A stretch of DNA of 64,000 nt, taken from the NCBI RefSeq assembly GCF_058153355.1, contig NZ_CM177019.1, one strand, 5' to 3'. Shown in pieces: positions 37,966 to 54,645 of the stretch. Position 1 is the stretch's first letter. Every line of letters starts with the position of its first letter. Below the pieces are notes generated by a model, which made no database searches, was not told where the DNA came from, and was given only the letters and a program-made list of their open reading frames with translations. A program made the position numbers and the translations under genes.

Positions 37966-38180
37966 GCCGAGTCCTTTGTGCGAGGAAAAATATCAGTATG
38001 GCCTGGTGATGGGAAAAAGGGCAGAAAATGTTGATGGTTTGTTACTTCCCAATAAATCACATATTTATCATGGTGATATAAATATTTTCCTAATTGTTCT
38101 TATCTGACAGATATCTCACTTAAGGCTTTCTTATAAATCTGTAGGGTTTGCACCATGAGTGCGGTAGCTATGAGGTTTAT

Positions 38181-40493
38181 ATGTCCTCAGAAGGATTACG
38201 TTTCACGCTGTCGGTGGCCGGTATCGTGGAGATGGCGACGGCGGTGGTGAGCTTCCGTCTGTACCAGCACCACTGCACGCCGTTCATCCTGGATGTGGAT
38301 ATCGCCAGCGGGCTGCCCGACCTGACGGCGGAGGATTTTCTGGAGAAGAGCGCGGTGCTGACGGTCTGGCAGGGTGATATCCCGCAGCGTTACGTCAGCG
38401 GTATCGTGACGGAGGTGCAGCTCGGTGAGAACAACGACTGGCAGATGCGTTATTCCCTGAGCATCAGCCCGCCGCTGTGGCGGGCAGGGTTACGGCAGAA
38501 CTTCCGTATCTTCCAGCAGCAGGACATTCAGACGATATCAGCACAGCTTCTGAGAGAGAACGGGGTGACGGCGTGGATGCCGCTGTTCTATGAGGCGCAC
38601 CCGGCGCGGGAGTTCTGCGTGCAGTACGGGGAGAGCGACCTGGCATTCCTGACCCGGCTGTGGGCGGAGGAAGGTATCTTCTTTTATGAGCGCTGCGGTC
38701 AGGAAGGGCCGGAGCAGAAGCTGGCGGTGTGTGATGACGTGGCGGGGCTGACGGGAATGGGGGCGCTGGCGTTTAACCCGAATACCACGACCGGGGGAAC
38801 GACGGAGTACATCAGTGAGTTTCGTTACCGTGCGCAGATAAGCGTGGCGTCGGTGGAGACGCAGGATTATACGTTCAAAACGCCGGGGTGGCCGGGGTAC
38901 TACAGCCATGACGGGGAGAGCCTGAACGGGCAGGGAACGCAGTACGAGATATTTGATTATCCGGGGCGTTTCAAGGATGAGCAGCATGGCCAGGATTTTG
39001 CGCGTTACCAGACGGAAGGGTGGCGGAACGGGGCGGAGACGGCGAGCGGGGTGTGTAACACGGCGCGGCTGTGGCCGGGAACGCGGTTCCGGCTGACGGG
39101 CCATCCCTCAGAGACGCTGAACCGGGAATGGCAGGTTGTGGGAAGCACACTGCGGGGAGAACAGCCGCAGGCGCTGCACGGGAGTCACGGTGAAGGGACG
39201 ACACTGAGCAATCAGTTTGAGGTGATACCGGCAGACAGGACGTGGCGTCACGCGCCGCTGCCGAAGCCGAAGGTGGACGGCCCGCAGAGTGCCATCGTGA
39301 CCGGGCCGAAGGGTGAGGAGATATTCTGCGACGAGCATGGCCGGGTACGGGTGAAGTTTCACTGGGACCGTTATCACGGGATGACGGAGGAGAGTTCGTG
39401 CTGGATACGGGTGTCGCAGGCATGGGCGGGACCGGGGTTCGGCAATCTGGCGATACCGCGTGTGGGTCAGGAAGTGATAGTGGACTTTCTGAACGGCGAC
39501 CCGGACCAGCCCATTGTGACGGGGCGGACCTACCATGAAGATAACCGTTCACCGGGGGATTTACCGGGCACGCGGACGCAGATGACCATCCGCTCGAAGA
39601 CCTATAAAGGAAGCGGCTTTAATGAACTGCGTTTCGAGGATGCGACGGACAGTGAGCAGGTGTATATCCACGCGCAGAAGAACATGGACACGGAGGTGCT
39701 TAACGACCGGACGACGGACGTGAAGCATGACCATACGGAGACCATCGGTAACGACCAGAAGATAAGGGTGGTGAAGGGGCAGACGGTTGAGGTCGGCACC
39801 AGAAAAGAAGGGGGTCACGACCAGAGTATCACGGTGGCGAACGACCGGCGCATAACGGTACGTAATGACCAGACGCTGAAGGTGACGAATGACCGGACGG
39901 TGAGCGTGAGTCACGATGACGGCCTGTATGTCAGAAACGACCGTAAAGTGACGGTGGAAGGGAAGCAGGAGCATAAGACGACGGGGAACCATATCAGCCT
40001 GGTGGAGGGAAAGCACAGTCTGGAGGTGAAGGGCGACCTGGCGGAGAAGGTGAGTGGCGCGCTGGGGATCAAGGTGGACGGGGATATCGTGCTGGAGAGC
40101 AGCAGCCGGATAAGCCTGAAAGTGGGCGGCTCGTTCGTGGTGATACACTCTGGCGGTGTGGATATTGCGGGGCCGAAGATAAACCTCAACGGGGGAGGCA
40201 GTCCGGGGACGCCAGTACAGACGTTACAACCGGTGGTACTGGAGGCGCTGGAGGATGAGAATGATGATGAGAACCCTGAAAAATATACTCTCCAGTTCCA
40301 TTTTACAGACGATGACGGGATACCGTATTCAGAGACACGCTACATTGCCTTCTTTGAGGACGGCACGCAGACGCGAGGGGAGACGGATGAAAATGGGTAT
40401 ACGGAAACATTCTCCACTGACAGCGAGCAGACAATCGAAGTCAGATTGTTGCATTTGAATATCGATATGATATGGGGAGGGATTAATGAATAG
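38181..40493 (+). CDS. vgrG: Type VI secretion spike protein VgrG (copy 1) with ~80-aa C-terminal extension (possible transthyretin-like adaptor domain)
   Basis: 770 aa from MSSEGLRFTLSVAGIVE…; gp27-like N-domain, gp5-like OB/beta-helix region with repeated VxVxV-type strands (…ITVANDRRITVRNDQTLKVTNDRTVSVSHDD…), then …VVIHSGGVDIAGPKINLNGGGSPG and an extension …YTLQFHFTDDDGIPYSETRYIAFFEDGTQTRGETDENGYTETF…. No YD repeats, so not Rhs. Confidence 0.9.
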   Translation: MSSEGLRFTLSVAGIVEMATAVVSFRLYQHHCTPFILDVDIASGLPDLTAEDFLEKSAVLTVWQGDIPQRYVSGIVTEVQLGENNDWQMRYSLSISPPLWRAGLRQNFRIFQQQDIQTISAQLLRENGVTAWMPLFYEAHPAREFCVQYGESDLAFLTRLWAEEGIFFYERCGQEGPEQKLAVCDDVAGLTGMGALAFNPNTTTGGTTEYISEFRYRAQISVASVETQDYTFKTPGWPGYYSHDGESLNGQGTQYEIFDYPGRFKDEQHGQDFARYQTEGWRNGAETASGVCNTARLWPGTRFRLTGHPSETLNREWQVVGSTLRGEQPQALHGSHGEGTTLSNQFEVIPADRTWRHAPLPKPKVDGPQSAIVTGPKGEEIFCDEHGRVRVKFHWDRYHGMTEESSCWIRVSQAWAGPGFGNLAIPRVGQEVIVDFLNGDPDQPIVTGRTYHEDNRSPGDLPGTRTQMTIRSKTYKGSGFNELRFEDATDSEQVYIHAQKNMDTEVLNDRTTDVKHDHTETIGNDQKIRVVKGQTVEVGTRKEGGHDQSITVANDRRITVRNDQTLKVTNDRTVSVSHDDGLYVRNDRKVTVEGKQEHKTTGNHISLVEGKHSLEVKGDLAEKVSGALGIKVDGDIVLESSSRISLKVGGSFVVIHSGGVDIAGPKINLNGGGSPGTPVQTLQPVVLEALEDENDDENPEKYTLQFHFTDDDGIPYSETRYIAFFEDGTQTRGETDENGYTETFSTDSEQTIEVRLLHLNIDMIWGGINE
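39163..40040. repeat. Near-identical ~0.9-kb vgrG 3'-core repeat, copy 1 of 3
   Basis: Sequence and six-frame antisense ORFs are identical to 43497-44374 and 49075-49900 (e.g. ORF 39602-39799 = 43935-44132 = 49459-49656). Confidence 0.85.
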
Positions 40494-40576
40494 AGAGTGA
40501 CCGCCTGTAATTGGCGTGTTTTTGCATAAATGGAACAGGGTTTTGTAGTGAAAACATATTGCTAAGGAGGATTTAT

Positions 40577-41422
40577 ATGGGAGATGGAAAGGGTAGTACG
40601 AGCGGAAAAAGCCAGAGCGGTGAACAGTGTGTAGTTTTAAAGGAGGGAAAAATTACTAATGATTTTAAAATAATGATGAGAGAGGCTCTGAAGGCGCTGA
40701 TGGCTGTATTGAAGAAAAGAGTAGAAGATCTTGGTGATAAATGGGGAGAGGAACAAAATCAGGAGTTTATAAATATATTTGGTATTGATGGAAATACTTA
40801 TATTAAATTAGAGTTCCCTTTCGGGGGGCGTAAGGTTATGTTTCCAGAGAATATAAAGGCAAGGGATTATATGAGAAATGGCGTTACTCGCCTGTATGAG
40901 ATATGTGGGGAATTATCTGTGGAAGGTGATTGTGTAGACGTTACTATTCATGACCATTTCCTCAAACGTGATGCCAATTGTAATCTTGTTCTTAATGACA
41001 AAGGGGGTAATGAATATGTTGACAAAGACGTAATCAGGCCCAAAACCGGTAACTTTGTGAATTGTACAGATAATGACGCTTATGCTGCCAATGTAACTTA
41101 CGATCAGATTTTGGGTGTAAAACCTGGAGGCTTTAAAAGTTTGGTAAGTATAACTATAGGACAAAGATTTATAGATAGGCCACCCACTGGGAAAAACTCT
41201 AAGGCATCGACACTCTGCCATGAACTATCTCACTTTATAAGGTACGGGGATTCATTTAAGTTTGGAGGCATGTGGACGGAAGATATGCCGGTAGATATAG
41301 AGTATAATACAGGTGACGAATATATTGTTCATGCCACTAAATTAAAAAATGATAAAAAATCAGAACTATTTCAGAATGCATATAATATCGAACGTTATTT
41401 CGAGATTCATGTACCATATTGA
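40577..41422 (+). CDS. Putative T6SS effector, HExxH zincin-like metallopeptidase candidate
   Basis: 281 aa from ATG 40577 (RBS aaggagg upstream); AT-rich; HELSH motif at 41219-41233 followed by …GGMWTEDMPVDIEYNTGDEY…; no signal peptide; directly downstream of vgrG-1. Confidence 0.55.
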   Translation: MGDGKGSTSGKSQSGEQCVVLKEGKITNDFKIMMREALKALMAVLKKRVEDLGDKWGEEQNQEFINIFGIDGNTYIKLEFPFGGRKVMFPENIKARDYMRNGVTRLYEICGELSVEGDCVDVTIHDHFLKRDANCNLVLNDKGGNEYVDKDVIRPKTGNFVNCTDNDAYAANVTYDQILGVKPGGFKSLVSITIGQRFIDRPPTGKNSKASTLCHELSHFIRYGDSFKFGGMWTEDMPVDIEYNTGDEYIVHATKLKNDKKSELFQNAYNIERYFEIHVPY

Positions 41423-41446
41423 TGCTTTTATTTGACGGGGGAGTAT

Positions 41447-42355
41447 ATGCTTGCTAGATGGATTGTTTTTATTGTTTTTTTTGCGCATCCAATATTTGCT
41501 TATGATATCTCTGGCGATTATGCTGTTCATTACAGATATGGGAAGTTATATTGGAATGGAGTAATGGACAAACTTGGTGTCTATCCTCGTGTAGAGCCGA
41601 CAAGGCTTAATTATTATGATTATTATGATGATCTTTCAGCCTATGCTGTTTTTCAATATTATACTATCAGTAAAAATGAGAGTCAGTATAATCAAGATAA
41701 AAATAAAATATATCTTCATCTTTCCGTGCATCAGAAAGAAAATATTGTAGCAGCTGCAGTGGTTTTATCGAATAAAAGCCAGGGATCTTATTTTGTTCAT
41801 CGACTAACTCTTCCTCTTGACGTTAACGGCGGGCCTTACTCTTCCTTGTGTAGTGGTGTGTTTATACCGATAATGGATAACATTCAGTTGGATTTTTTAA
41901 AAAAAACAAAATGTAGCTTTGGTGAATGGAAAAATAAATCCGTTTGGCACGAGATATTAACAGGGAAAGAGCTATCCTTTGATGTCATATTGAACGATTA
42001 TTATGCCTTTTTACCGGGCATTCATCGTTATAATATAGGAACGGTAGAATTTACAATAGTTAATCAAGAGTGGTTTACAGAACAATGTATATATGAGTAT
42101 TTTCTTTCTATTATGAACTGGCGGGCAGAAAGTGAGTGTACTAATCCTATAGATAAAATAAGATATGGTATAGAGGAGTGGCGGGTTTGGAGAATTTGTG
42201 GACCTTATCGTGGGTCAGGTCTATTTCAGGATTTTTTAGCACGCTTTGGCTATCATGGCGGTAATGATAATATATTCAAAATAAGATCAAATCAGGTTGT
42301 GGTTACTATTGATGGGGATAGGGCATCTCCTCCTTATTCGTTGAGGAATTATTAA
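41447..42355 (+). CDS. Putative cognate immunity protein (secreted/periplasmic) for the HExxH effector
   Basis: ~303 aa with N-terminal signal peptide MLARWIVFIVFFAHPIFA; AT-rich; starts 24 bp after the effector stop; no recognisable family. Confidence 0.45.
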   Translation: MLARWIVFIVFFAHPIFAYDISGDYAVHYRYGKLYWNGVMDKLGVYPRVEPTRLNYYDYYDDLSAYAVFQYYTISKNESQYNQDKNKIYLHLSVHQKENIVAAAVVLSNKSQGSYFVHRLTLPLDVNGGPYSSLCSGVFIPIMDNIQLDFLKKTKCSFGEWKNKSVWHEILTGKELSFDVILNDYYAFLPGIHRYNIGTVEFTIVNQEWFTEQCIYEYFLSIMNWRAESECTNPIDKIRYGIEEWRVWRICGPYRGSGLFQDFLARFGYHGGNDNIFKIRSNQVVVTIDGDRASPPYSLRNY

Positions 42356-44721: not shown

Positions 44722-47211
44722 ATGAAAATCAGCCATCCCATCAGGGATAAAGAAGGCAAAGAGTTTCGCTCACTGGATGAGATAATGCGGCTTATTGACA
44801 AAGAAGCGCACGGAACCTGGCTGCTGGGTGGAAACGGGCTGTGGCACGGCGGGATACATATCAGTGACGTGTCTAATCCGTTATCAGCCCTGAAACCGGA
44901 TACCGCCGCTACCGGAGAACCGGTTCCTCTTCAGTTTATGGCCGATGGCACCATTGCGGCGTACCGGATAAATAATGATTACCTGAAAGGCCCCTACAAA
45001 GGGCAGCAACTCCGTTACAGCAGCACATTTGTTCTGGTGAAATCGCAGTGCCAGCCAGACCCGCAAAAAAAAGAAAGCTGGCTGGAATTTTACTGTCTCT
45101 ATATGCATCTGGCCCCGGTGAACGATTATCCCGGCTCCCCCTGCTATAAAGTTAAAACCGGGCATGGTGGCATATTGCTGCACCGATACATCCCGGGAAA
45201 GAACGGCCTTCCCGAGGGGCAGGAAAGCGGAGATCATGCCACGTACTGGATACCCCCGAAAATCAGCGGAAACAGGACACTTAATGCGGGAGATCGGTTT
45301 GTGTCATCCCGGACCGGACGTTTTTACGTGACCAATAACGGCCAGCCGGTCCTGACGACATTCGGACTGGTTCGCCTGCTGGAAGGCAATAAACCGGGGA
45401 ATGAGCAGTACTGGGTGACCCTGGATCCGGATCTGATGGAGTCAGATGGCGAAATACAGATGCTGATGCCTGAGTGGATGCAGAAGGCGAAGGCAAAAGG
45501 CATTTTTGACTCGGTACAGACGGTCGACGAAACGGAAGAGTGGAAAGTCAGTGCCGGAACACCGGTCGGATTTATGGGATGCGAGGATTATCCTGGCGAG
45601 GGAAGCGGTGAGATTGAGCGCGAGTGGTTCGTCCATCTGGAGGTTCTGAGTACAGACCCGAATATGCCAAAGTTCTTATCCAACCCGGCAGGCGTTAAGG
45701 GAGAAAAACGGACTGTTCTGGCACCAAAAGGGATAATTTTATACACCCGGCAGGCCGTTCCGGGACAGGAGGTATTTACCGCAACCGCAGCCACGCTGGG
45801 TGCTCAGCGCGTTCTTCCGCGGGAAGCCACGACACCAGTCACGGATGAATCGCAGCAGTGGTGGTTTAATATCACCGGAACCGGCTGGCTGCCACAAAAG
45901 GATGTTGAAGAGGCCGGACAGTATGATTTACTGAAGCTGGGTTTTCAACCGCTGGAGGAGAACAGCAGCGGTGACATGACGTACAGCCCGTACGAAGGAT
46001 GGGTGCCGGAAGCGTTTGACTCAATAAGCCGTGCCGCAGAACAGGGAGATGAGTGGCTGTATGAGCAGGTACCGCCCTTTTATCGTGAGCTGATGGCGGG
46101 TATGGATCAGGACGGTGATGGAAAAGTGACGGAGGAAGAGATCAGACAGGCGCTGATCGTGCGTGAACCACTGGTGAGAAATGTGGTGAATCATCTGATA
46201 GTTAAACACCACAGCGAATGGTACGGAGGGCGCTCGACAGGGCGGTGGGAAGGATTTTATAAAGATCTGGATACAGAGGAAGTGGCATACTGTGAGAAGT
46301 GGCAGCTGGATCTGGAGTGGATGAGCGGGGTATCTCCGTTTAATAGTGATGATGCTGTGTGGCATTTTCATCCGGTTGTGTTTTTGGACGCTATTAATTC
46401 CAAATCTGTGTGTGCTTGCAACAGAGATATAACATTAGATGAATTAAAAAAAGTTGCTCCTGCAGTAAGTGAAGGTCTTCTCAAAAGGTACCTCTACGAT
46501 ATAAATGCAGGGTTTATTCGGTTTGGTATGACCACTTGTAGAGAAAAAGCCCATTTTCTTGCTCAAATTATTCACGAGAGCGGTTATTTTAGATATACCA
46601 AAGAAATTAATGGTGAATCAGCTTCATATAGTCCGTGGTATGGCCGAGGCTTAATACAAGTTACAGGCGAAAGTAATTACACCGCCTATGGGGAATATAT
46701 CAATGAGGACGTAACATCTTCAGATTCCGCAAGAGATAAACTCATATCCTCCCCACATTGCGTATTATCTGCGTTTTGGTATTTCAATATATTCAAAAGA
46801 ATAAATGAAGATGCTAAAAATGATGATTTTAATAAAATTACAGTAGTGATTAATGGAGGGTATAATCATTATGATGAACGGTTGTCGATATTTAATAAAT
46901 TGGTTACCTCACTTGCTGCCGAGCATTTAAATCAGAAAGAAATGAACGACGATTTCTTGTTTGATGATAGTGACGTATATGATAATAAAGTATATGCTTT
47001 GGGATGGGGGATATGGCATGATCCTGATAGCTCCCGAAGAGGGACGATCAAGAGTAACGAAGAAGCATTAAAAGGTTATAGAAGGGCGAAAGAATTAATT
47101 GACCTGCATCCGTTTCCTCAGGAAGGGCGTGAGGGTGATAGAAAAGTATATGGAATAGAAAAAAGGAATATATCCACATTTGTAGAGAGACGAATAACTG
47201 AACTGGAGTAA
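44722..47211 (+). CDS. Large T6SS effector: possible M23/LytM-like N-region, EF-hand calcium-binding motif, C-terminal GH19/lysozyme-like peptidoglycan hydrolase domain
   Basis: 829 aa; EF-hand loop DQDGDGKVTEEE (~46102); C-terminal …REKAHFLAQIIHESGYFRYTKEINGESASYSPWYGRGLIQVTGESNYTAYG… (from ~46537) matches the GH19 / 'predicted chitinase' catalytic signature; N-region WHGGIHISDV…ADGTIAAY…YMHL resembles a divergent M23 peptidase (tentative). Confidence 0.7.
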   Translation: MKISHPIRDKEGKEFRSLDEIMRLIDKEAHGTWLLGGNGLWHGGIHISDVSNPLSALKPDTAATGEPVPLQFMADGTIAAYRINNDYLKGPYKGQQLRYSSTFVLVKSQCQPDPQKKESWLEFYCLYMHLAPVNDYPGSPCYKVKTGHGGILLHRYIPGKNGLPEGQESGDHATYWIPPKISGNRTLNAGDRFVSSRTGRFYVTNNGQPVLTTFGLVRLLEGNKPGNEQYWVTLDPDLMESDGEIQMLMPEWMQKAKAKGIFDSVQTVDETEEWKVSAGTPVGFMGCEDYPGEGSGEIEREWFVHLEVLSTDPNMPKFLSNPAGVKGEKRTVLAPKGIILYTRQAVPGQEVFTATAATLGAQRVLPREATTPVTDESQQWWFNITGTGWLPQKDVEEAGQYDLLKLGFQPLEENSSGDMTYSPYEGWVPEAFDSISRAAEQGDEWLYEQVPPFYRELMAGMDQDGDGKVTEEEIRQALIVREPLVRNVVNHLIVKHHSEWYGGRSTGRWEGFYKDLDTEEVAYCEKWQLDLEWMSGVSPFNSDDAVWHFHPVVFLDAINSKSVCACNRDITLDELKKVAPAVSEGLLKRYLYDINAGFIRFGMTTCREKAHFLAQIIHESGYFRYTKEINGESASYSPWYGRGLIQVTGESNYTAYGEYINEDVTSSDSARDKLISSPHCVLSAFWYFNIFKRINEDAKNDDFNKITVVINGGYNHYDERLSIFNKLVTSLAAEHLNQKEMNDDFLFDDSDVYDNKVYALGWGIWHDPDSSRRGTIKSNEEALKGYRRAKELIDLHPFPQEGREGDRKVYGIEKRNISTFVERRITELE

Positions 47212-47216
47212 TTGAT

Positions 47217-47627
47217 ATGAAAGTTAATTTATTGGTTTTACTGTTTTGTTTGGTGCCTTGTTGTTTATTGGCTAAACAACAAACAACGGTAGGCTGTTTT
47301 AGCGCTGGGAAAACAAATTTAAAGTTTGTTGAAATATCGTCTGGCGATATTTTTTTAGGTTATGTGATTTATGAGAAATCCTCAAAATTTATACCTCTTG
47401 CGTTTATAAATAAATTAGAAGTGACTTTCGATGACAGGCCTTCTGAATTTTCTTATGCATGGAGCGAGGTTGTAAATGGAAAAATTAATGGGTTGTATGT
47501 TGTTTCCACACAAGGTGCAAGATTTAATTTGTTTCATTATAAATCAATAAGTGGGAAAACAACTGAGTTTGAAGAAAATATTGAGGCATATAATGATGAT
47601 GGTACTGATTGCAAATGGACTGGATGA
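47217..47627 (+). CDS. Putative periplasmic immunity protein for the lysozyme-like effector
   Basis: 136 aa with N-terminal signal sequence MKVNLLVLLFCLVPCCLLA; begins 5 bp after the effector stop; AT-rich. Confidence 0.45.
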   Translation: MKVNLLVLLFCLVPCCLLAKQQTTVGCFSAGKTNLKFVEISSGDIFLGYVIYEKSSKFIPLAFINKLEVTFDDRPSEFSYAWSEVVNGKINGLYVVSTQGARFNLFHYKSISGKTTEFEENIEAYNDDGTDCKWTG

Positions 47628-47775: not shown

Positions 47776-49070
47776 ACAGGCAGGCAGGGAAAGATCACGT
47801 AACGCTGCTTTTTTGTACTATACAATTCGCATTTTATGTTTGAAAATTGAGATATTCCTCATTACCTGAAGCTGTTTTTTATTGCTTATACATGATCAAA
47901 TACTCCTTACATAATTAAGGAGAACAAAATGGTACTTAAAAAATTGATGGAACATATTTCTATTATCCCCGATTACAGACAAGCCTGGAAAGTGGAACAT
48001 AAATTATCGGATATTCTACTGTTGACTATTTGCGCCGTTATTTCGGGTGCAGAAGGCTGGGAAGATATAGAGGATTTTGGGGAAACACATCTCGATTTTT
48101 TGAAGCAATATGGTGATTTTGAAAATGGTATTCCTGTTCACGATACCATTGTCAGAGTTGTATCCTGTATCAGTCCTGCAAAATTTCACGAGTGCTTTAT
48201 TAACTGGATGCGTGACTGCCATTCTTCAGATGATAAAGGCGTCATTGCAATTGATGGAAAAACGCTCCGGCACTCTTATGACAAGAGTCGCCGCAGGGGA
48301 GCGATTCATGTCATTAGTGCGTTCTCAACAATGCACAGTCTGGTCATCGGACAGATCAAGACGGATGAGAAATCCAATGAGATTACAGCTATCCCAGAAC
48401 TTCTTAACATGCTGGATATTAAAGGAAAAATCATCACAACTGATGCGATGGGTTGCCAGAAAGATATTGCAGAGAAGATACAAAAACAGGGAGGTGATTA
48501 TTTATTCGCGGTAAAAGGAAACCAGGGGCGGCTAAATAAAGCCTTTGAGGAAAAATTTCCGCTGAAAGAATTAAATAATCCAGATCATGACAGTTAAGCG
48601 ATTAGTGAAAAGAGTCACGGCAGAGAAAAAATCCGTCTTCATATTGTTTGCGATGTCCCTGATGAACTTATTGATTTCACGTTTGAATGGAAAGGTCTGA
48701 AGAAATTATGCGTGGCAGTCTCCTTTCGGTTAATAATAGCAGAACAAAAGAAAGAGCCAGAAATGACGGTCAGATATTATATCAGTTCTGCTGATTTAAC
48801 CGCAGAGAAGTTCGCCACAGCAATCCGAAACCACTGGCACGTGGAGAATAAGCTGCACTGGCGTCTGGACGTGGTAATGAATGAAGACGACTGCAAAATA
48901 AGAAGAGGAAACGCCGCAGAATTATTTTCAGGGATACGGCACATCGCTATTAATATTTTAACGAATGATAAGGTATTCAAGGCAGGGTTAAGACGTAAGA
49001 TGCGAAAAGCAGCCATGGACAGAAACTATCTCGCGTCAGTCCTTGCGGGGAGCGGGCTTTCGTAATCTTG
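47776..49070 (+). mobile_element. ISAs1-family (H-repeat / ISEc1-like) element inserted into vgrG copy 3
   Basis: ~1.3 kb; contains the H-repeat transposase gene; left-end sequence (gtacaggcagggaaagatcac…) recurs at 51856 and ~53976; right end abuts vgrG sequence beginning mid-gene (…FEVIPADRTW…). Confidence 0.7.
47929..49065 (+). pseudogene. ISAs1-family transposase (H-repeat protein, YhhI-like) with an in-frame TAA at 48595-48597
   Basis: ORFs 47929-48597 and 48712-49065 are in the same frame and both match the H-repeat protein ([58 protein letters not shown]… and …[41 protein letters not shown]…); full span would encode 378 aa. Confidence 0.8.
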
Positions 49071-49074
49071 CCCT

Positions 49075-49900
49075 GGAGGTGATACCGGCGGACAGGACGT
49101 GGCGTCACGCGCCCCTGCCGAAGCCGAAGGTGGACGGCCCGCAGAGTGCCATCGTGACCGGGCCGAAGGGCGAGGAGATATTCTGCGACGAGCATGGCCG
49201 GGTACGGGTGAAGTTTCACTGGGACCGTTATCACGGGATGACGGAGGAGAGTTCATGCTGGATACGGGCGTCGCAGGCATGGGCGGGACCGGGGTTCGGC
49301 AATCTGGCGATACCGCGTGTGGGTCAGGAAGTGATAGTGGACTTTCTGAACGGCGACCCGGACCAGCCCATTGTGACGGGGCGGACATACCATGAGGACA
49401 ACCGTTCACCGGGGGATTTACCGGGCACGCGGACGCAGATGACCATCCGCTCGAAGACCTATAAAGGAAGCGGCTTTAATGAACTGCGTTTCGAGGATGC
49501 GACGGACAGTGAGCAGGTGTATATCCACGCGCAGAAGAACATGGACACGGAGGTGCTTAACGACCGGACGACGGACGTGAAGCATGACCATACGGAGACC
49601 ATCGGTAACGACCAGAAGATAAGGGTGGTGAAGGGGCAGACGGTTGAGGTCGGCACCAGAAAAGAAGGGGGTCACGACCAGAGTATCACGGTGGCGAACG
49701 ACCGGCGCATAACGGTACGTAATGACCAGACGCTGAAGGTGACGAATGACCGGACGGTGAGCGTGAGTCACGATGACGGCCTGTATGTCAGAAACGACCG
49801 TAAAGTGACGGTGGAAGGGAAGCAGGAGCATAAGACGACGGGGAACCATATCAGTCTGGTGGAGGGAACGCACAGTCTGGAGGTGAAGGGCGACCTGGCG
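49075..49900. repeat. Near-identical vgrG 3'-core repeat, copy 3 of 3
   Basis: See copy 1. Confidence 0.8.
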
Positions 49901-51492
49901 AGGAAGATTACCGGTGCGCTGGGAATGAAGGTCCGGGATGAAATCGTACTGGAGAGTGGTGGTAAAATCACCCTGAAGTGGGTGGCTCGTTTGTGGTCGT
50001 TCATTCTGGTGGTGTGGATATTGTCGGACCGAAAATAAATCTGAATTGCGGGCGCAGTCCGGGGACGCCGATAAATACACTACAACCGGCAGTTATGGAC
50101 GCTCTGGCTGACGAGCAGTATGACAGAGGGAATGCTGGCGGCGGGAATGACGGAGAGCCTAGTGATGAGGATGAATCAGAAGGTGGAGAAGAAGACAAGG
50201 ACGATTCAGATGAACTGGTAATTCCTGTATACGCAAAATCTTGTCTGAAGGAGAAAGGCTGCACTGATGCTGGTACGACCATGGAGCCATCGAAACATTT
50301 TGGTGATATGGCTCTATTTGCCCAGCCAGTGGAGGATGACTGTTGCGGCTATGGTACACACTATCATGACGATGAAGTGGAGCAACTTGCGCAGTCAGCA
50401 AAAAAAACCTCAGGAGCGAACTCACTGACGGGGGAAATGACAGTTGCGTCAGCGGGTGTTGCGGTTCCACTAGCGGCGGAACAGTCTGCGGGAGTTTTAA
50501 CTCGCGTATGGGGAACATTAGGGGCATGGGGTGGAGAAGGTTTTTTAAGTGTATCAAAAACGGTGCCAGCCCTTGGTGTCCTAGTATCAGCACTATATCC
50601 AATACCTGCCGGTGAAGGTAGTGATAAAGTTCCTGGACGGGATGAACAGTGGCTCGAAAATGAGCTACGTCGTAAAGCGCAATCTGGAGAGACGGCAGCT
50701 ACGCGGGCGCGCTTTCTCTTTCAGCGGAATACTGCTGGTGAATTGAGGACATACGGATACCACACACCCGCAGGTTCGGAACTTGAAGGTGTTCGGGTAG
50801 CATTGATGGAGTGGAATAAGGAATTTTCCCGTTATGAATTTTCACCTGTGTCTGATTCGGGACCAAAAATATTTTGGACGCCTGCAAAGCCAGAAGGTTC
50901 AGAGCAGCCCATACACACCGGAACTCCTGTCGAACCAGTTGATCTACCTGATATTTATGTTAATCCGATACCCGATGAAAAAACAGATATCACCACGCCG
51001 CCTTCTCCAATGCCGGAGGAGCGAAATTTTAATGACTGGATACTTGTCTTTCCTGACGGTGCGGAATTAACACCAATATATGTGTATCTGAAAACTGCAA
51101 GGGATGTAGCGGGAACAGTAACAGGTAAGGGGGAGGTGTTAGCAGGTACAGGAAGATGGCTGTCGCAGGCGGGGAAAAGCTTAGGAGTGCCAATTCCACA
51201 ACAGGTCGCAAATAAACTTCGGAGTAAGTCATTTAACAATTTTGATGAATTCATGGCAGCTTTCTGGACTGCTGTAGGTGAATGTCCAGAACTATTGAGC
51301 CAATTTAATAAAGCTAACCAAACGTTGATAAAGCGTGGACGCGCACCTTATACTATATCAAGACAAAGAGTTGGGGGGCGAGGTACATTTGAAATTCATC
51401 ATATTGACGAAATCCAATATGGGGGAGAAGTCTATGATATTGATAATCTTAGAGTAAACACACCTAAAAACCACATACGATTGCATAAATAA
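49075..51492 (+). pseudogene. vgrG: vgrG copy 3, 'evolved' VgrG with C-terminal colicin E9/pyocin-type HNH DNase domain; 5'-truncated by ISAs1 and carrying a -1 frameshift near 49976
   Basis: Starts mid-gene at the ISAs1 right end; vgrG frame runs to ~49976 where ctgaagtgggtgg has lost one G relative to copies 1/2 (ctgaaggtgggtgg); downstream frame continues through a linker to …GVPIPQQVANKLRSKSFNNFDEFMAAFWTAVGECPELLSQ…RQRVGGRGTFEIHHIDEIQYGGEVYDIDNLRVNTPKNHIRLHK (~51169-51489), which aligns closely with the colicin E9 DNase domain. Confidence 0.8.
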
Positions 51493-51505
51493 AAAGGAGG
51501 TAGTA

Positions 51506-51778
51506 ATGGAGTTTAAAAATAATCTAGAAGATTATACGGAAGATGAATTTATCGAACTTCTAAATAATTTTTTTGAACCACCTGAGGAATTGCATGGCGA
51601 TAAGTTGTCGAAGTTTATTGATGATCTTGTAAGTCATTTTATTAGAATCACTCAGCACCCAGATGGTAGTGATTTGATATTCTATCCATCTGAAGATAGA
51701 GAAGATAGTCCCCAAGGGATTGTTGATGAGTTAAAACGATGGCGAGCATCGCAGGGGCTAGGATGCTTTAAAATATAA
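51506..51778 (+). CDS. Colicin E9-type DNase immunity protein (Im9-like)
   Basis: 90 aa: MEFKNNLEDYTEDEFIELLNNFF…HFIRITQHPDGSDLIFYPSEDREDSPQGIVDELKRWRASQG aligns along its length with Im9 (MELKHSISDYTEAEFLQLV…[35 protein letters not shown]); strong RBS aaggagg; 13 bp after the DNase stop. Confidence 0.85.
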   Translation: MEFKNNLEDYTEDEFIELLNNFFEPPEELHGDKLSKFIDDLVSHFIRITQHPDGSDLIFYPSEDREDSPQGIVDELKRWRASQGLGCFKI

Positions 51779-51855: not shown

Positions 51856-52301
51856 TGGTACAGGGAAAGATCACCAGAAGTACACTTTTTGTACTAAATA
51901 ATTCGCATTTTATGTTCAATAATTGAGATATTCCTCATTACCTGAGGCTGTTTTTTATTGCTTATACATGATCAAATACTCCTTACATAATTAAGGAGAA
52001 CAAAATGGAACTTAAAAAATTGATGGAACATATTTCTGTTATTCCTGATTACAGACAAGCCTGGAAAGTGGAACATAAATTGTCGGATATTCTACTTTTG
52101 ACTATTTGCTCCGTCATTTCTGGTACAGAAGGCTGGCAAGATATAGAGAATTTTGGGGAAACACATCTCGATTTTTTGAAGCGACATGGTGATTTTTGAA
52201 ATGGTATTCCTGTTCACATACCATTGCCAGAGTTGTATCCTGTATCAGCCCTGCAAAATTTCATGAGTGCTTTATTAAAAGGAAACCAGGGGCGGCTTAA
52301 T
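51856..52301 (+). mobile_element. Degraded ISAs1/H-repeat remnant (left end plus internally deleted transposase fragment) fused to effector sequence
   Basis: Left-end sequence and transposase N-terminus ([58 protein letters not shown]…) present, then a deletion to the internal …KGNQGRLN segment, which joins directly to effector-2-like sequence at ~52302. Confidence 0.6.
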
Positions 52302-53465
52302 ATCACCGGAACCGGCTGGCTGCCACAAAAGGATGTTGAAGAGGCCGGACAGTATGATTTACTGAAGCTGGGTTTTCAACCGCTGGAGGAGAACAGCAGC
52401 GGTGACATGACGTACAGCCCGTACGAAGGATGGGTGCCGGAAGCGTTTGACTCAATAAGCCGTGCCGCAGAACAGGGAGATGAGTGGCTGTATGAGCAGG
52501 TACCGCCCTTTTATCGTGAGCTGATGGCGGGTATGGATCAGGACGGTGATGGAAAAGTGACGGAGGAAGAGATCAGACAGGCGCTGACCGTGCGTGAACC
52601 ACTGGTGAGAAATGTGGTGAATCGTCTGACAGTCAGACACCACAGCGAGTGGTACGGCGGTCGCTCGACGGGACGCTGGGAAGGGTTTTATAAAGATCTG
52701 GACACCGAGGAAGTGGCATACTGTGAAAAGTGGCAGCTGGATCTGGAGTGGATGAGCGGGGTGTCTCCGTTTAATAGTGATGATGCTGTGTGGCATTTTC
52801 ATCCGGTTGTGTTTTTGAATGCTATTAATAATAGCAATTACCCAAAAACTCCTGTGAATAATGAACTTATTCCATTGGAATTTTTACGATTTTATAACGG
52901 AGATACCATTGATGATGCAGACTATGAAAATGCTGCAAGGACACTACAATGCGAAGTGGCTGCAATTAAAGCTGTTGCAAAAACTGAAACTGGTAGTTCC
53001 GGTAGCTATTTTAAATTTGAACAAGAAGATGATTACGTCCCCTCAATTCTTTTTGAAAGACATCATTTCCATCGATATACGAATGGTGTGTATGATTCTC
53101 AACCTGATATTTCCAACAGCCGTTCTGGCGGTTATGGAACACGATCGGAGCAATATCAAAAATTACTTCGTGCATATGTTTTAGATAAGCAAGCTGCGCT
53201 TAAATCGGCATCGTGGGGTAAATTTCAGATATTGGCTTCAAATTACCAAGCTACCGGGTACTCTTCGCCCGAAGAGTTTATAATATCGATTTCAGAGTTA
53301 GAGAAAAACCATCTGGCGGCATTCATTAACTTCATAAAATCTAATCCTGTATTATTGCGTGCTATTAGAGATAAAGATTGGCTTAACTTTGCTCTATGTT
53401 ATAATGGGCAAAGTCAGCGAGGATATGATGACAGAATAAGGGCTAATTATGAGCAATATAGATAG
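52302..53465 (+). CDS. Orphan effector 3' module: conserved effector mid-region fused to a muramidase-like (PF11860/DUF3380-type) C-terminal domain; 5' end replaced by the H-repeat remnant
   Basis: 52302-52817 is ~97% identical to effector-2 45871-46386 (NITGTGWLPQKDVEEAGQYDLLK…EF-hand…VWHFHPVVFL), after which the sequence diverges into …AAIKAVAKTETGSSGSYFKFEQEDDYVPSILFERHHFHRYT…SASWGKFQILASNYQATGYSSPEEFI…NGQSQRGYDDRIRANYEQY, resembling the N-acetylmuramidase family (recalled motif pattern, not searched). Confidence 0.55.
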   Translation: MTGTGWLPQKDVEEAGQYDLLKLGFQPLEENSSGDMTYSPYEGWVPEAFDSISRAAEQGDEWLYEQVPPFYRELMAGMDQDGDGKVTEEEIRQALTVREPLVRNVVNRLTVRHHSEWYGGRSTGRWEGFYKDLDTEEVAYCEKWQLDLEWMSGVSPFNSDDAVWHFHPVVFLNAINNSNYPKTPVNNELIPLEFLRFYNGDTIDDADYENAARTLQCEVAAIKAVAKTETGSSGSYFKFEQEDDYVPSILFERHHFHRYTNGVYDSQPDISNSRSGGYGTRSEQYQKLLRAYVLDKQAALKSASWGKFQILASNYQATGYSSPEEFIISISELEKNHLAAFINFIKSNPVLLRAIRDKDWLNFALCYNGQSQRGYDDRIRANYEQYR

Positions 53466-53898
53466 AGCATTAATTTTTATTTTTTTATCTGGAATTCCCT
53501 GGACTCTACACGCAGGAAATAATTATTTTTTATGTAATACATCCAAAGGAACTTTGTCATTAACAAGTTTTGGTGAAACGTTGATTTATGAAATGAATAG
53601 TCAGCATGGGAATAAATTTCAATTCATTTCAGATGGACCAATGTATTCAGGATTTTTTTATAATCATTACTCCAGATTTCAAACGGATTACTTTAGCGTT
53701 AGTTTTATTCAAAGTGGATATAAGTACTCCGTGTTTAGCAATTACGACAACGGTAGTAACATGCGAGGGGTTAGTGTCATTGATATGAAAACAAAAAAAG
53801 AATACGTTTATAATTGCAAAGATTATAAAGTGGACAGGCTTTATAATCTGAAAAAAAAGCTTAAATGTGATATTAATAATGTACTAAGTTGTCAGTAA
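53449..53898 (+). CDS. Putative periplasmic immunity protein for the muramidase-like toxin module
   Basis: 149 aa, hydrophobic N-terminus MSNIDRALIFIFLSGIPWTLHA; overlaps the effector stop by 17 nt; very AT-rich. Confidence 0.4.
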   Translation: MSNIDRALIFIFLSGIPWTLHAGNNYFLCNTSKGTLSLTSFGETLIYEMNSQHGNKFQFISDGPMYSGFFYNHYSRFQTDYFSVSFIQSGYKYSVFSNYDNGSNMRGVSVIDMKTKKEYVYNCKDYKVDRLYNLKKKLKCDINNVLSCQ

Positions 53899-53975: not shown

Positions 53976-54645
53976 ATAAAGGTAAAGACCATATAACGCC
54001 GATTTTTTGCACTAAACAATTAGCACTAAATGTCCAATAATCAAGATATCCCTTATTATTTAATAAGTGTTTTCATAGCTTATATATATTCAGACACTCC
54101 TTACATAAACAAGGAGAAAAAATGGAACTTAAAAAATTAATGGAGCATATTTCTACTGTCCCGATTACAGACAAGTCTGGAAAGTAGAGTATAAATTATC
54201 AGATATCCTAGTGCTGATTATTTTCGCCATCCTTTCCGGAGCTGAAGGATGGGAAGATATAGAGGATTCTGGTGAGACTCATCTCGATTTGTTGAAGCAA
54301 TATGGTGATTTTTAATATGGTATTCCTATTCACGATATCATTGCCAGAGTTGTGTCCTGTATCAGTCCTGGAAAATTTCACGAGTTCTTTATTAGCTGGA
54401 TGTGTGACTGTCATTCTTCAGATAATAAAACCATCATCGCAATAGATGGAAAAGCACTCCAGCACTTTTTTGATTAGCATCGTCGCAGAGGAACAATTCA
54501 TAATCATTGCGATCTCGACGATGTATAGTCTGATCCTGCGGCAGAACAAGACGGATAAAAAATCTAATGAGAGCACACTCATCAAGAACTTCTCAACCTA
54601 ATGAATATTAAAGAAAAATCATCGCAGCCAATGAAGTAATATGCA
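53976..54645 (+). mobile_element. Heavily degraded ISAs1/H-repeat remnant (multiple stops/frameshifts, 3' truncated)
   Basis: Recognisable but broken transposase N-terminus ([11 protein letters not shown]…[28 protein letters not shown]…); preceded at 53921-53975 by another fragment of the effector mid-region (…YDLLKL…LEEN…). Confidence 0.55.

Follow-up and report, generated by a model that had tools for sequence, protein, structure and literature searches.

An open reading frame (ORF) of 829 amino acids (aa) that directly follows a vgrG spike gene, and that is itself followed by an ORF of 136 aa, raises the question of whether its product is a chitinase, as a 99%-identical copy in Escherichia coli N96 is annotated, or an antibacterial effector. 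Both ORFs lie in a stretch of 64,000 nucleotides (nt) from an E. coli chromosome (NCBI RefSeq assembly GCF_058153355.1, contig NZ_CM177019.1), which is referred to here as the window. A first-pass annotation of this DNA had described the longer ORF as a secreted antibacterial effector combining a possible divergent M23-like region, an EF-hand, and a GH19/lysozyme-like domain, and the shorter one as its periplasmic immunity protein. The ORF listing places both genes exactly where that annotation had them, all the motifs that it quoted are present in the effector, and secretion is supported by the VgrG directly upstream, whose match to the TIGR03361 model is far above the cut-off (Table 1). As set out below, the 829-aa protein is very probably a type VI secretion system (T6SS) cargo effector of the WHIX type (TseP family), subclass I, and its gene is in all likelihood co-transcribed with vgrG on its 5' side and the immunity gene on its 3' side.

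The effector and its N-terminal WHIX module

The WHIX domain, named for its WHxxxH motif, is a bipartite module mostly joined to peptidoglycan-targeting C-termini and accompanied by downstream immunity genes with signal peptides, and the class comprises 4,434 unique proteins, 2,242 of them with chitinase-like C-termini (Fridman et al., PLoS Biol 2025, PMC12135965). The effector TseP consists of an N-terminal Zn-dependent amidase, an EF-hand, and a C-terminal lysozyme neutralised by TsiP, and its N-terminal domain (TseP-N), a binder of VgrG2, is required for the T6SS to assemble (Wang et al., eLife 2025, PMC11893102). TseP is cited as a secreted WHIX protein by PMC12135965, and WHIX and TseP are the same family. 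Features of the WHIX class that are found in the window are the WHxxxH motif, the bipartite module, a vgrG gene on the 5' side, a peptidoglycan-targeting C-terminal domain, and a gene with a signal peptide on the 3' side. Because the WHIX module occupies the extreme N-terminus, the protein falls into subclass I. Thus, the architecture that had been called unusual turns out to be the standard layout of WHIX proteins (PMC12135965) and of TseP (PMC11893102).

The WHIX module of the effector contains a first region (approximately aa 30-135) with the WHxxxH motif as W41-H42-G43-G44-I45-H46, a variable, beta-rich insert (approximately aa 136-275), and a second region (approximately aa 276-557) with H305-L-E307, the EF-hand, KH(H)SEW (H496, E499, and W500), and WHFHP (aa 547-551). 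This bipartite conserved module is common to all 58 diverse homologues that were aligned, in which H42, G43, and H46 are invariant and W41 nearly so. The ORF has hundreds of homologues, and its AlphaFold2 model, built from the 58-sequence alignment, reaches a mean predicted local distance difference test (pLDDT) value of 85.7; therefore, it is more than a chance reading frame. An exhaustive search with aa 1-560 retrieved 677 cluster representatives at E<=1e-3. Residues 1-557 form a module conserved across Enterobacteriaceae, which ends sharply at the module/toxin junction ...WHFHPVVFL(D/N)AI and carries interchangeable C-termini: GH19-like, PF11860 muramidase, PF05838, PF16754 pesticin-like, PF01551 together with PF00959, and PF05257 CHAP. 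Two Enterobacter homologues (P0017 and P0021) have an extra N-terminal extension of ~150 aa ahead of WHIX and are likely subclass II double-blade effectors.

The link to the WHIX class runs via the motif and via homology to the TseP family, not via the reference protein WP_005373349.1. The C-terminal domain of an Aeromonas molluscorum protein of 844 aa (P0239) is closely related to that of A. dhakensis TseP (8XCL; E=6e-79), and P0239 is colinear with the effector over both N-terminal blocks, the EF-hand region, and the lysozyme domain, with BLASTP matches of 3e-31 and 3e-26 that cover both WHIX regions. As in the effector, the WHxxxH N-domain, the EF-hand, KHxSEW, WHF(H/S)P, and a GH19-like domain with two Glu residues nine positions apart are found in TseP, AHA_1849, and PSPTO_5204; moreover, members of the TseP family have VgrG upstream, a signal-peptide immunity gene downstream, and a C-domain of lower guanine plus cytosine (GC) content than the N-domain. 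There are also differences, since identity to P0239 of the TseP cluster is only 25-35%, the Aeromonas proteins contain an insertion of ~75 aa ahead of the HxE strand that the effector does not have, the lysozyme domain of the effector is compact, closest to PWe2 endolysin and devoid of the long insert of the TseP C-domain, and the immunity proteins are unrelated in sequence. The reports of amidase activity concern the N-domains of TseP, AHA_1849, and PSPTO_5204, not enterobacterial members.

The effector likewise agrees with the surveyed subclass I proteins in its bipartite WHxxxH module, the neighbouring vgrG, and the downstream signal-peptide immunity gene. Chitinase-like C-termini are the commonest in that survey, and the C-terminus of the effector is also peptidoglycan-targeting; the polymorphic C-termini of the subclass (pesticin-like, N-acetylmuramidase, and lysozyme-like) recur among its close homologues. 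It differs from the surveyed proteins in its GH19 variant with a helical tail of ~95 aa and in the uncharacterised family of its 136-aa immunity protein. A LytM/M23-like core, the EF-hand, and orphan C-terminal cassettes are not mentioned in PMC12135965, from whose text the terms 'EF-hand', 'zinc', and 'recombination' are absent. The PIX delivery domain of Enterobacterales (bioRxiv 10.1101/2023.07.16.549128), which was also considered for the N-terminal module, was rejected, as it measures 140 aa, belongs to orphan effectors with nuclease-type toxins, and never lies beside T6SS genes.

In the explanation that accounts best for these features, the WHIX module (aa 1-557), in which a beta core of the LytM/M23 kind, altered at its metal site, accompanies a helical part containing the EF-hand, would bind the tail of the adjacent VgrG (...GRFSR), and the effector would be fired on the spike into a Gram-negative neighbour. 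In the recipient periplasm, the GH19-type lysozyme domain, with Glu619 and Glu628 as putative catalytic residues, would then cleave glycan strands and lyse the cell, whereas the 136-aa periplasmic beta-barrel protein would protect the producer and its kin, presumably by blocking the lysozyme domain. What the sequences and models themselves show is how the genes are ordered, where the domains begin and end, how they fold, which residues are conserved, and to which family the protein belongs; secretion, VgrG binding, muramidase activity, and immunity are expected from homology to tested relatives.

Enzyme or loading clamp

The N-terminal half of the effector had been compared in the first-pass annotation with an M23 endopeptidase whose catalytic positions are partly altered, on the basis of the segments WHGGIHISDV (aa 41-50), ADGTIAAY (aa 74-81), and YMHL (aa 127-130). 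By eye, M23-like motifs do follow one another along the module, with H42-G-G-I-H46 at the place of M23 HxGxD, A74-D-G76, Y127-M-H129-L, G279-xxx-G283, and H305-L-E307 at the place of M23 HLH, and an insert of ~140 aa separates the third and fourth elements. Matched in this way, by motif order and by eye, M23 HxxxD would correspond to H42-xxx-H46 and HxH to H305-L-E307. H42, H46, H305, and E307 are invariant in all 58 family members, and H129, at the position of the M23 catalytic His, is G or Q in 13 of them. The WHIX module has the LytM beta-core fold. Nevertheless, no PF01551 (M23) match to the effector was returned by Pfam even at E<=10, the 58-sequence family profile retrieved no M23 chain from the PDB sequences at E<=10, and Foldseek with the full-length model against the PDB recovered the GH19 domain only, cupins and Tc toxins at probability <=0.05 being disregarded. 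The comparison with M23 therefore holds for the fold and fails for sequence membership, and calling it a divergent M23 domain altered at catalytic positions is fair as far as structure goes. WHIX departs from the M23/LytM proteins (LytM, lysostaphin, and NMB0315 (3SLU), as well as the degenerate EnvC, SpoIIQ, and DipM) in having HxxxH for HxxxD, HxE for HxH, and the insert that splits the domain, and no similarity at the level of hidden Markov models was found.

Two views of this module have been published, in which it is a Zn-dependent amidase aligned to M23 (PMC11893102) or a delivery domain with a deep cavity (PMC12135965). If the former applied here, the effector would be a truly bifunctional enzyme, with an M23-like Zn2+-dependent amidase/peptidase at the N-terminus, a lysozyme at the C-terminus, and one immunity protein neutralising both. 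The N-terminal domains of TseP, AHA_1849, and PSPTO_5204 free tri- and tetrapeptides from peptidoglycan in vitro in a Zn2+-dependent manner, and TsiP inhibits both halves of TseP (PMC11893102); WHIX is fused almost exclusively to peptidoglycan-targeting domains (PMC12135965), and the LytM-like fold, as well as the invariant residues in the HxxxD/HxH ligand places, is compatible with such an enzyme. However, WHIX by itself showed no periplasmic toxicity in E. coli (PMC12135965), TseP toxicity is lost when only the lysozyme domain is mutated (PMC11893102), two canonical M23 ligands are replaced family-wide, the H129 position is changed in the homologues noted above, and M23 goes undetected by Pfam and by the family profile. 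The amidase residues given for TseP are H19, H23, H109, H339, H359, and E539; the effector has an HxxxH pair, YMH, and SEW-Glu (H42, H46, H129, and E499), and the comparison is one of motifs, each protein keeping its own numbering. Moreover, His339, the only TseP mutant that separates amidase activity from T6SS assembly, falls in the Aeromonas-specific insertion of ~75 aa, which has no counterpart in the effector, a provisional point that was read from the A. dhakensis homologue P0326 and not from TseP. Taken together, we lean against a bifunctional enzyme while regarding it as a serious contender, and an active amidase or peptidase in the N-terminal module of the effector is, to the same degree, possible but not favoured.

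The delivery role has a further point of contact with the locus in the C-terminal tail of the VgrG of the window, the presumed carrier of the effector. This tail is Pro-rich and basic and ends in ...PPQRPGRFSR, and the VgrG proteins next to other WHIX genes end in ...PSRRNRFSR (L004), ...EQRKGLISR (L005), and ...KPKAFFLFSE (L002), i.e., the tails at the four WHIX loci have a similar basic ...(F/I)S(R/E) ending. WHIX alone suffices for secretion by the T6SS and depends on the C-terminal tail of VgrG; in A. jandaei VgrG4, WHIX cannot be loaded without the final 14 residues, for which insertion into the WHIX cavity is predicted (PMC12135965). TseP-N binds VgrG2 and restores T6SS assembly (PMC11893102). 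From the similarity of the tails, we infer that the same loading mechanism may operate here. Enzyme or not, the main documented role of the N-terminal module is VgrG-tail loading and support of T6SS assembly. A more tentative proposal, which we consider unlikely, derives WHIX from a LytM/M23 domain that has degenerated, with the groove that once took up substrate, lined by H42, H46, H305, and E307, now clamping the VgrG tail ...GRFSR as a pseudo-substrate, to be released or even processed after delivery.

The EF-hand, which had been taken to suggest calcium-dependent activation, lies in region 2 of WHIX. The loop is canonical, with a match at aa 462 to PROSITE PS00018 (D-x-[DNS]-x-[DENSTG]-G-x-[ILV]-x-x-x-E) and a Pfam EF-hand_1 match (E=8.7e-4) at aa 455-478. 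PS00018 is retained at the aligned loop in 41 of the 58 family representatives and lost in the others. The AlphaFold2 model places the loop between helices 452-460 and 471-479, with a pLDDT of only 54-65 over aa 440-480. No effect was detected for EF-hand mutations in TseP, and Ca2+ did not rescue the activity of its N-domain (PMC11893102). Therefore, the motif itself was recognised correctly, and the activation of the effector by calcium is speculation that the data on TseP do not favour.

The toxin domain and its candidate immunity protein

The C-terminal domain (approximately aa 560-735) contains the signature KAHFLAQIIHESGYF...WYGRGLIQVTGESNY at about aa 608-651, which had led the first-pass annotation to a lysozyme-like domain of the GH19 type. 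This fold is indeed found in the AlphaFold2 model, in which the domain has a bilobal alpha structure with a catalytic Glu in an [H]-E-[ST] context and a second Glu. The putative catalytic residues are E619, within HES, and E628, and the HMMER matches in the PDB align this HES...E dyad; the lysozyme domain with a catalytic Glu pair of the TseP type (8XCL) is likewise recognised, and some homologues carry precomputed PF00182 matches. The best structural and sequence matches of aa ~560-735 are GH19-type phage endolysins (PWe2 9MS7, P. aeruginosa 9EOI, KTN6 gp46 8P8E, and SPN1S 4OK7), in which, as in the effector, HES(G) with its catalytic Glu, a further Glu, and GRG(L/x)IQ(V/I/L)TG are conserved. 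Such endolysins act on their own in phage lysis, as proteins of ~180-220 aa, whereas the domain of the effector is the C-terminal cassette of a T6SS protein accompanied by a candidate periplasmic immunity protein. The C-terminal extension of ~95 aa that follows the domain is found only in the closest homologues, from E. coli, Citrobacter, and Cronobacter.

By homology to tested relatives, the domain would be a muramidase, as the TseP substitutions E663A/D abolish both lysozyme activity and toxicity (PMC11893102). The RefSeq name would instead imply a chitinase, i.e., a secreted GH19 enzyme serving chitin nutrition or host interaction. The GH19-type fold is the feature that such a name reflects; however, the effector has no signal peptide of its own and adjoins vgrG, a downstream gene with a signal peptide would make no sense for a chitinase, the swapped C-termini of close homologues are muramidases, amidases, or peptidases, and the C-domain of TseP cleaves peptidoglycan (PMC11893102). 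A chitinase is thus extremely improbable, and the reading of the domain as an antibacterial lysozyme is retained here.

The 136-aa ORF starts with MKVNLLVLLFCLVPCCLLA followed by KQQ, a charged start with a hydrophobic core in which a signal peptide is recognised by eye. Its family includes only 12 homologue clusters (E. coli, Citrobacter, Cronobacter, and metagenomes) and has an invariant Cys pair (Cys27/Cys132) and an invariant S-x-Q-G-A-R-F motif (aa 97-103). Homologues of 142 and 138 aa lie directly 3' of effectors with the same type of C-terminus in L004, a T6SS cluster of Cronobacter, as well as in L005/L006, and the family co-occurs solely with this type of C-terminal toxin. The protein is modelled as an eight-stranded beta-barrel of the PliC/MliC fold class, to which its identity is about 5%, without a sequence relationship, and PliC/MliC target C-type lysozymes, not GH19 enzymes. 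The invariant motif is reminiscent of the SxSGAxY inhibitory loop of PliC/MliC, a resemblance that is no more than a lead. The signal peptide, the co-occurrence, and the barrel model make the role of a periplasmic immunity protein, as initially proposed, plausible, and by homology to tested relatives the 136-aa ORF is likely the immunity gene of the effector. A PliC-like barrel may be what protects against a lysozyme of the GH19 type.

Several observations weigh against the assignment of the system as a whole. The two source papers conflict on whether the N-terminal module is enzymatic. For the toxin domain, the Pfam search, which recovered the EF-hand and left M23 unmatched, returned a sub-threshold PF00182 (Glyco_hydro_19) fragment only (E=0.074, aa 634-677), and no NCBIfam model matched the GH19-type domain. 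The NCBIfam and PADLOC models, run on the effector, the two immunity candidates, and neighbouring ORFs, likewise matched neither the effector nor the immunity genes. The immunity assignment is based on position, co-occurrence, and fold class; Pfam (including MliC) and PDB-profile searches with the immunity alignment gave no match, with no sequence similarity to PliC/MliC, and the barrel fold is generic, as avidins, Cap15, and outer-membrane barrels score similarly. The protein of 162 aa in the TsiP position 3' of P0239 bears no similarity to the 136-aa ORF in BLASTP (E=1.1), although unrelated immunity proteins are what is expected of polymorphic toxin-immunity pairs. Furthermore, the effector gene is rare, occurring in 3 of 5,426 complete E. 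coli genomes.

Setting of the locus and orphan cassettes

With the aid of strain N96, the window is placed on the E. coli chromosome as an island between yibF and yibH. In E. coli K-12, rhsA and its H-repeats lie in this interval. The features of the locus are collected in Table 1. Only 9 nt separate the vgrG stop codon (44712) from the effector and 5 nt the effector from the 136-aa ORF, and Shine-Dalgarno-like sites precede both genes (AAGGA 8 nt 5' of the effector ATG and GGAG 9 nt 5' of the ATG of the 136-aa ORF). The order vgrG-effector-small ORF also occurs within complete T6SS clusters of Cronobacter (L004), a metagenome (L005), and Klebsiella (L009-L011), which contain tssK, tssL, tagL, hcp, PAAR, and tssM. 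The GC content steps down along the operon and drops by 16 points exactly at the WHIX/toxin junction (46398/46399). The same staircase is repeated in an orphan copy of the module further downstream, from 53.2% to 37.1% at 52829/52830 and then to the value of its own candidate immunity gene. From this composition, the AT-rich toxin-immunity cassettes look horizontally acquired.

Table 1. Coordinates and properties of the features of the WHIX locus (positions refer to the window)
Feature	Coordinates	Strand	GC (%)	Evidence or remarks
vgrG (tssI) spike gene, 733 aa	42511-44712	+	59.8	TIGR03361 586.8 bits (cut-off 186); TIGR01646 417 bits
Effector ORF, 829 aa	44722-47211	+		ORF listing; ATG start
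WHIX domain, aa 1-559 (about aa 1-557)	44722-46398	+	52.9	Region 1, variable insert, and region 2
EF-hand Ca2+-binding loop, aa 462-473	46105-46140	+		DQDGDGKVTEEE; within WHIX region 2
C-terminal toxin domain, ~aa 560-735	46399-46926	+	36.7	Compact GH19-type lysozyme/endolysin-like fold
C-terminal extension, ~95 aa (aa 736-829)	46927-47211	+		Predicted helical
Candidate immunity gene, 136 aa	47217-47627	+	32.4	Sec-type signal peptide; Cys27/Cys132
ISAs1-family (H-repeat) element	47810-49065	+		Transposase split in two ORFs; NF033564 transpos_ISAs1 270 bits for 47929-48597
Orphan 5'-truncated WHIX effector	52287-53465	+		WHIX codons ~379-559, then N-acetylmuramidase (PF11860 type); ISAs1 fragment fused 5' (module 52224-53898)
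Candidate immunity gene of orphan muramidase cassette, 149 aa	53449-53898	+	29.6	Hydrophobic N-terminus

The abundance of mobile DNA around the operon raises the possibility that the island is decaying or silent, and that the effector goes unexpressed or undelivered in this strain. Insertion sequence (IS) elements and orphan fragments are present throughout the locus, with ISAs1 copies and truncated vgrG and WHIX pieces just downstream, and the low frequency of the gene in E. coli points in the same direction. In contrast, the effector ORF is full length and 99% identical to the copies in three other strains, the family-invariant residues and the catalytic dyad are all retained, and the ribosome-binding sites, the tight operon spacing, and the cognate immunity gene are intact. 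The chance that the gene is silent is therefore considered small, and an intact T6SS effector operon remains the preferred reading.

An ISAs1 element separates the active operon from the downstream orphan cassettes, and it brackets them together with two related ISAs1 copies or fragments, which repeat families D4 and D6 place at 51886-52343 and 54160-54459 (the former delimited as 51886-52286 ahead of the orphan). One of these cassettes contains the 5'-truncated WHIX effector, whose WHIX part is a DNA repeat of that of the intact gene (45856-46398 and 52287-52829; 543 nt, 96% identical). The repeat breaks off abruptly at both ends, one of which coincides with the WHIX/toxin junction and the other with the ISAs1 fragment. 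A full-length effector of 749 aa (P0005) matches the orphan at 98% identity over its last 389 aa, and a second E. coli contig (L007) carries the P0005 gene intact at this yibH-proximal locus. Consequently, both states of the locus exist in E. coli. On the 5' side of the tract, L007 differs from the full-length gene of the window at 7 of 1,112 positions; within the tract, it differs from the full-length copy at 24 positions and from the orphan copy at 9, all 9 of which are in the 5' portion (1144-1386 of 1141-1683), the remainder being identical. The intact muramidase effector of L007 is followed by a gene of 145 aa, and the 99.2% match between L007 and the window spans the 149-aa candidate immunity gene, whose product is unrelated to the 136-aa protein.

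This arrangement looks like C-terminal cassette displacement in a WHIX locus, as at Rhs and CdiA loci. In common with Rhs/CdiA orphan cassettes, the window contains a 5'-truncated copy with a conserved stretch, an alternative toxin, and its own immunity gene, in AT-rich cassettes with ISAs1/H-repeat elements adjacent. The carriers of the known systems are Rhs/YD repeats or CdiA, whereas the carrier here is the WHIX domain, and the two locus states are in different E. coli strains and known from sequence alone. It may be through the conserved 3' WHIX tract that WHIX loci diversify, their C-terminal toxin-immunity cassettes being displaced in the manner of Rhs.

The stretch from one WHIX module to the other contains the ISAs1 element, a 3' fragment of vgrG, and the gene for a DNase-type toxin with its candidate immunity gene. 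In this second orphan module (49043-51778), the vgrG fragment (49043-50038) overlaps out of frame an ORF of 504 aa (49978-51492). NF047924, a model for T6SS antibacterial DNases, recognises the C-terminus of this ORF (E=5e-65), at the end of which stands an HNH-like motif, and a candidate immunity ORF of 90 aa follows (51506-51778); the equivalent in E. coli ET350 is annotated 'S-type pyocin domain' and 'bacteriocin immunity protein'. Upstream of the operon, a first VgrG module (38148-42355) encodes a VgrG of 781 aa with a distinct C-terminal extension of ~70 aa, followed by an ORF of 303 aa with an HExxH-like CHELSHF motif and an ORF of 307 aa that starts with a hydrophobic segment. The last two ORFs are annotated in E. 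coli N96 as one 'M35 family metalloendopeptidase' of 594 aa, 94% identical over the first part, and either the M35-like gene is split in the window or it is fused or misannotated in N96.

WHIX remnants are also found downstream of intact WHIX effectors in other genera, corresponding to the EF-hand region in Cronobacter (L004, 11915-12010; aa 452-483, 62% identity) and to the N-terminus in Citrobacter freundii (L008, 13704-14090; aa 1-112, 53% identity), and they suggest frequent rearrangement at WHIX loci. L005 contains an ORF of 413 aa, equal in length to the orphan ORF of the window but unrelated to it. In Klebsiella (L009, 13737-20921; also L010 and L011), a second vgrG belongs to the main T6SS cluster, and after it come two DUF3828 (Tai3-like) genes and the gene for a WHIX protein of 976 aa with a glucosaminidase C-terminus and an N-terminal extension, which is probably a 'double-blade' subclass II effector. 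These Klebsiella clusters carry two WHIX effectors, the other one being of the subclass I pesticin type.

The locus adds a rare E. coli example to the WHIX/TseP class, and not a new kind of system. In terms of naming, a protein registered in RefSeq as 'chitinase' or 'hypothetical protein' becomes an antibacterial effector of the T6SS, from a class that was not defined until 2025, and it is accompanied by a likely immunity protein of an uncharacterised family with a PliC-like barrel fold. The evidence for C-terminal cassette displacement in a WHIX locus, drawn from comparison of DNA sequences, is of specialist interest. Moreover, the link in fold between WHIX and LytM/M23, with its invariant ligand substitutions, bears on the dispute over whether the module is an enzyme or a loading clamp. 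If the groove does act as a clamp on the VgrG tail, this would reconcile the view of WHIX as a delivery cavity (PLoS Biol 2025) with that of a Zn-dependent amidase (eLife 2025).

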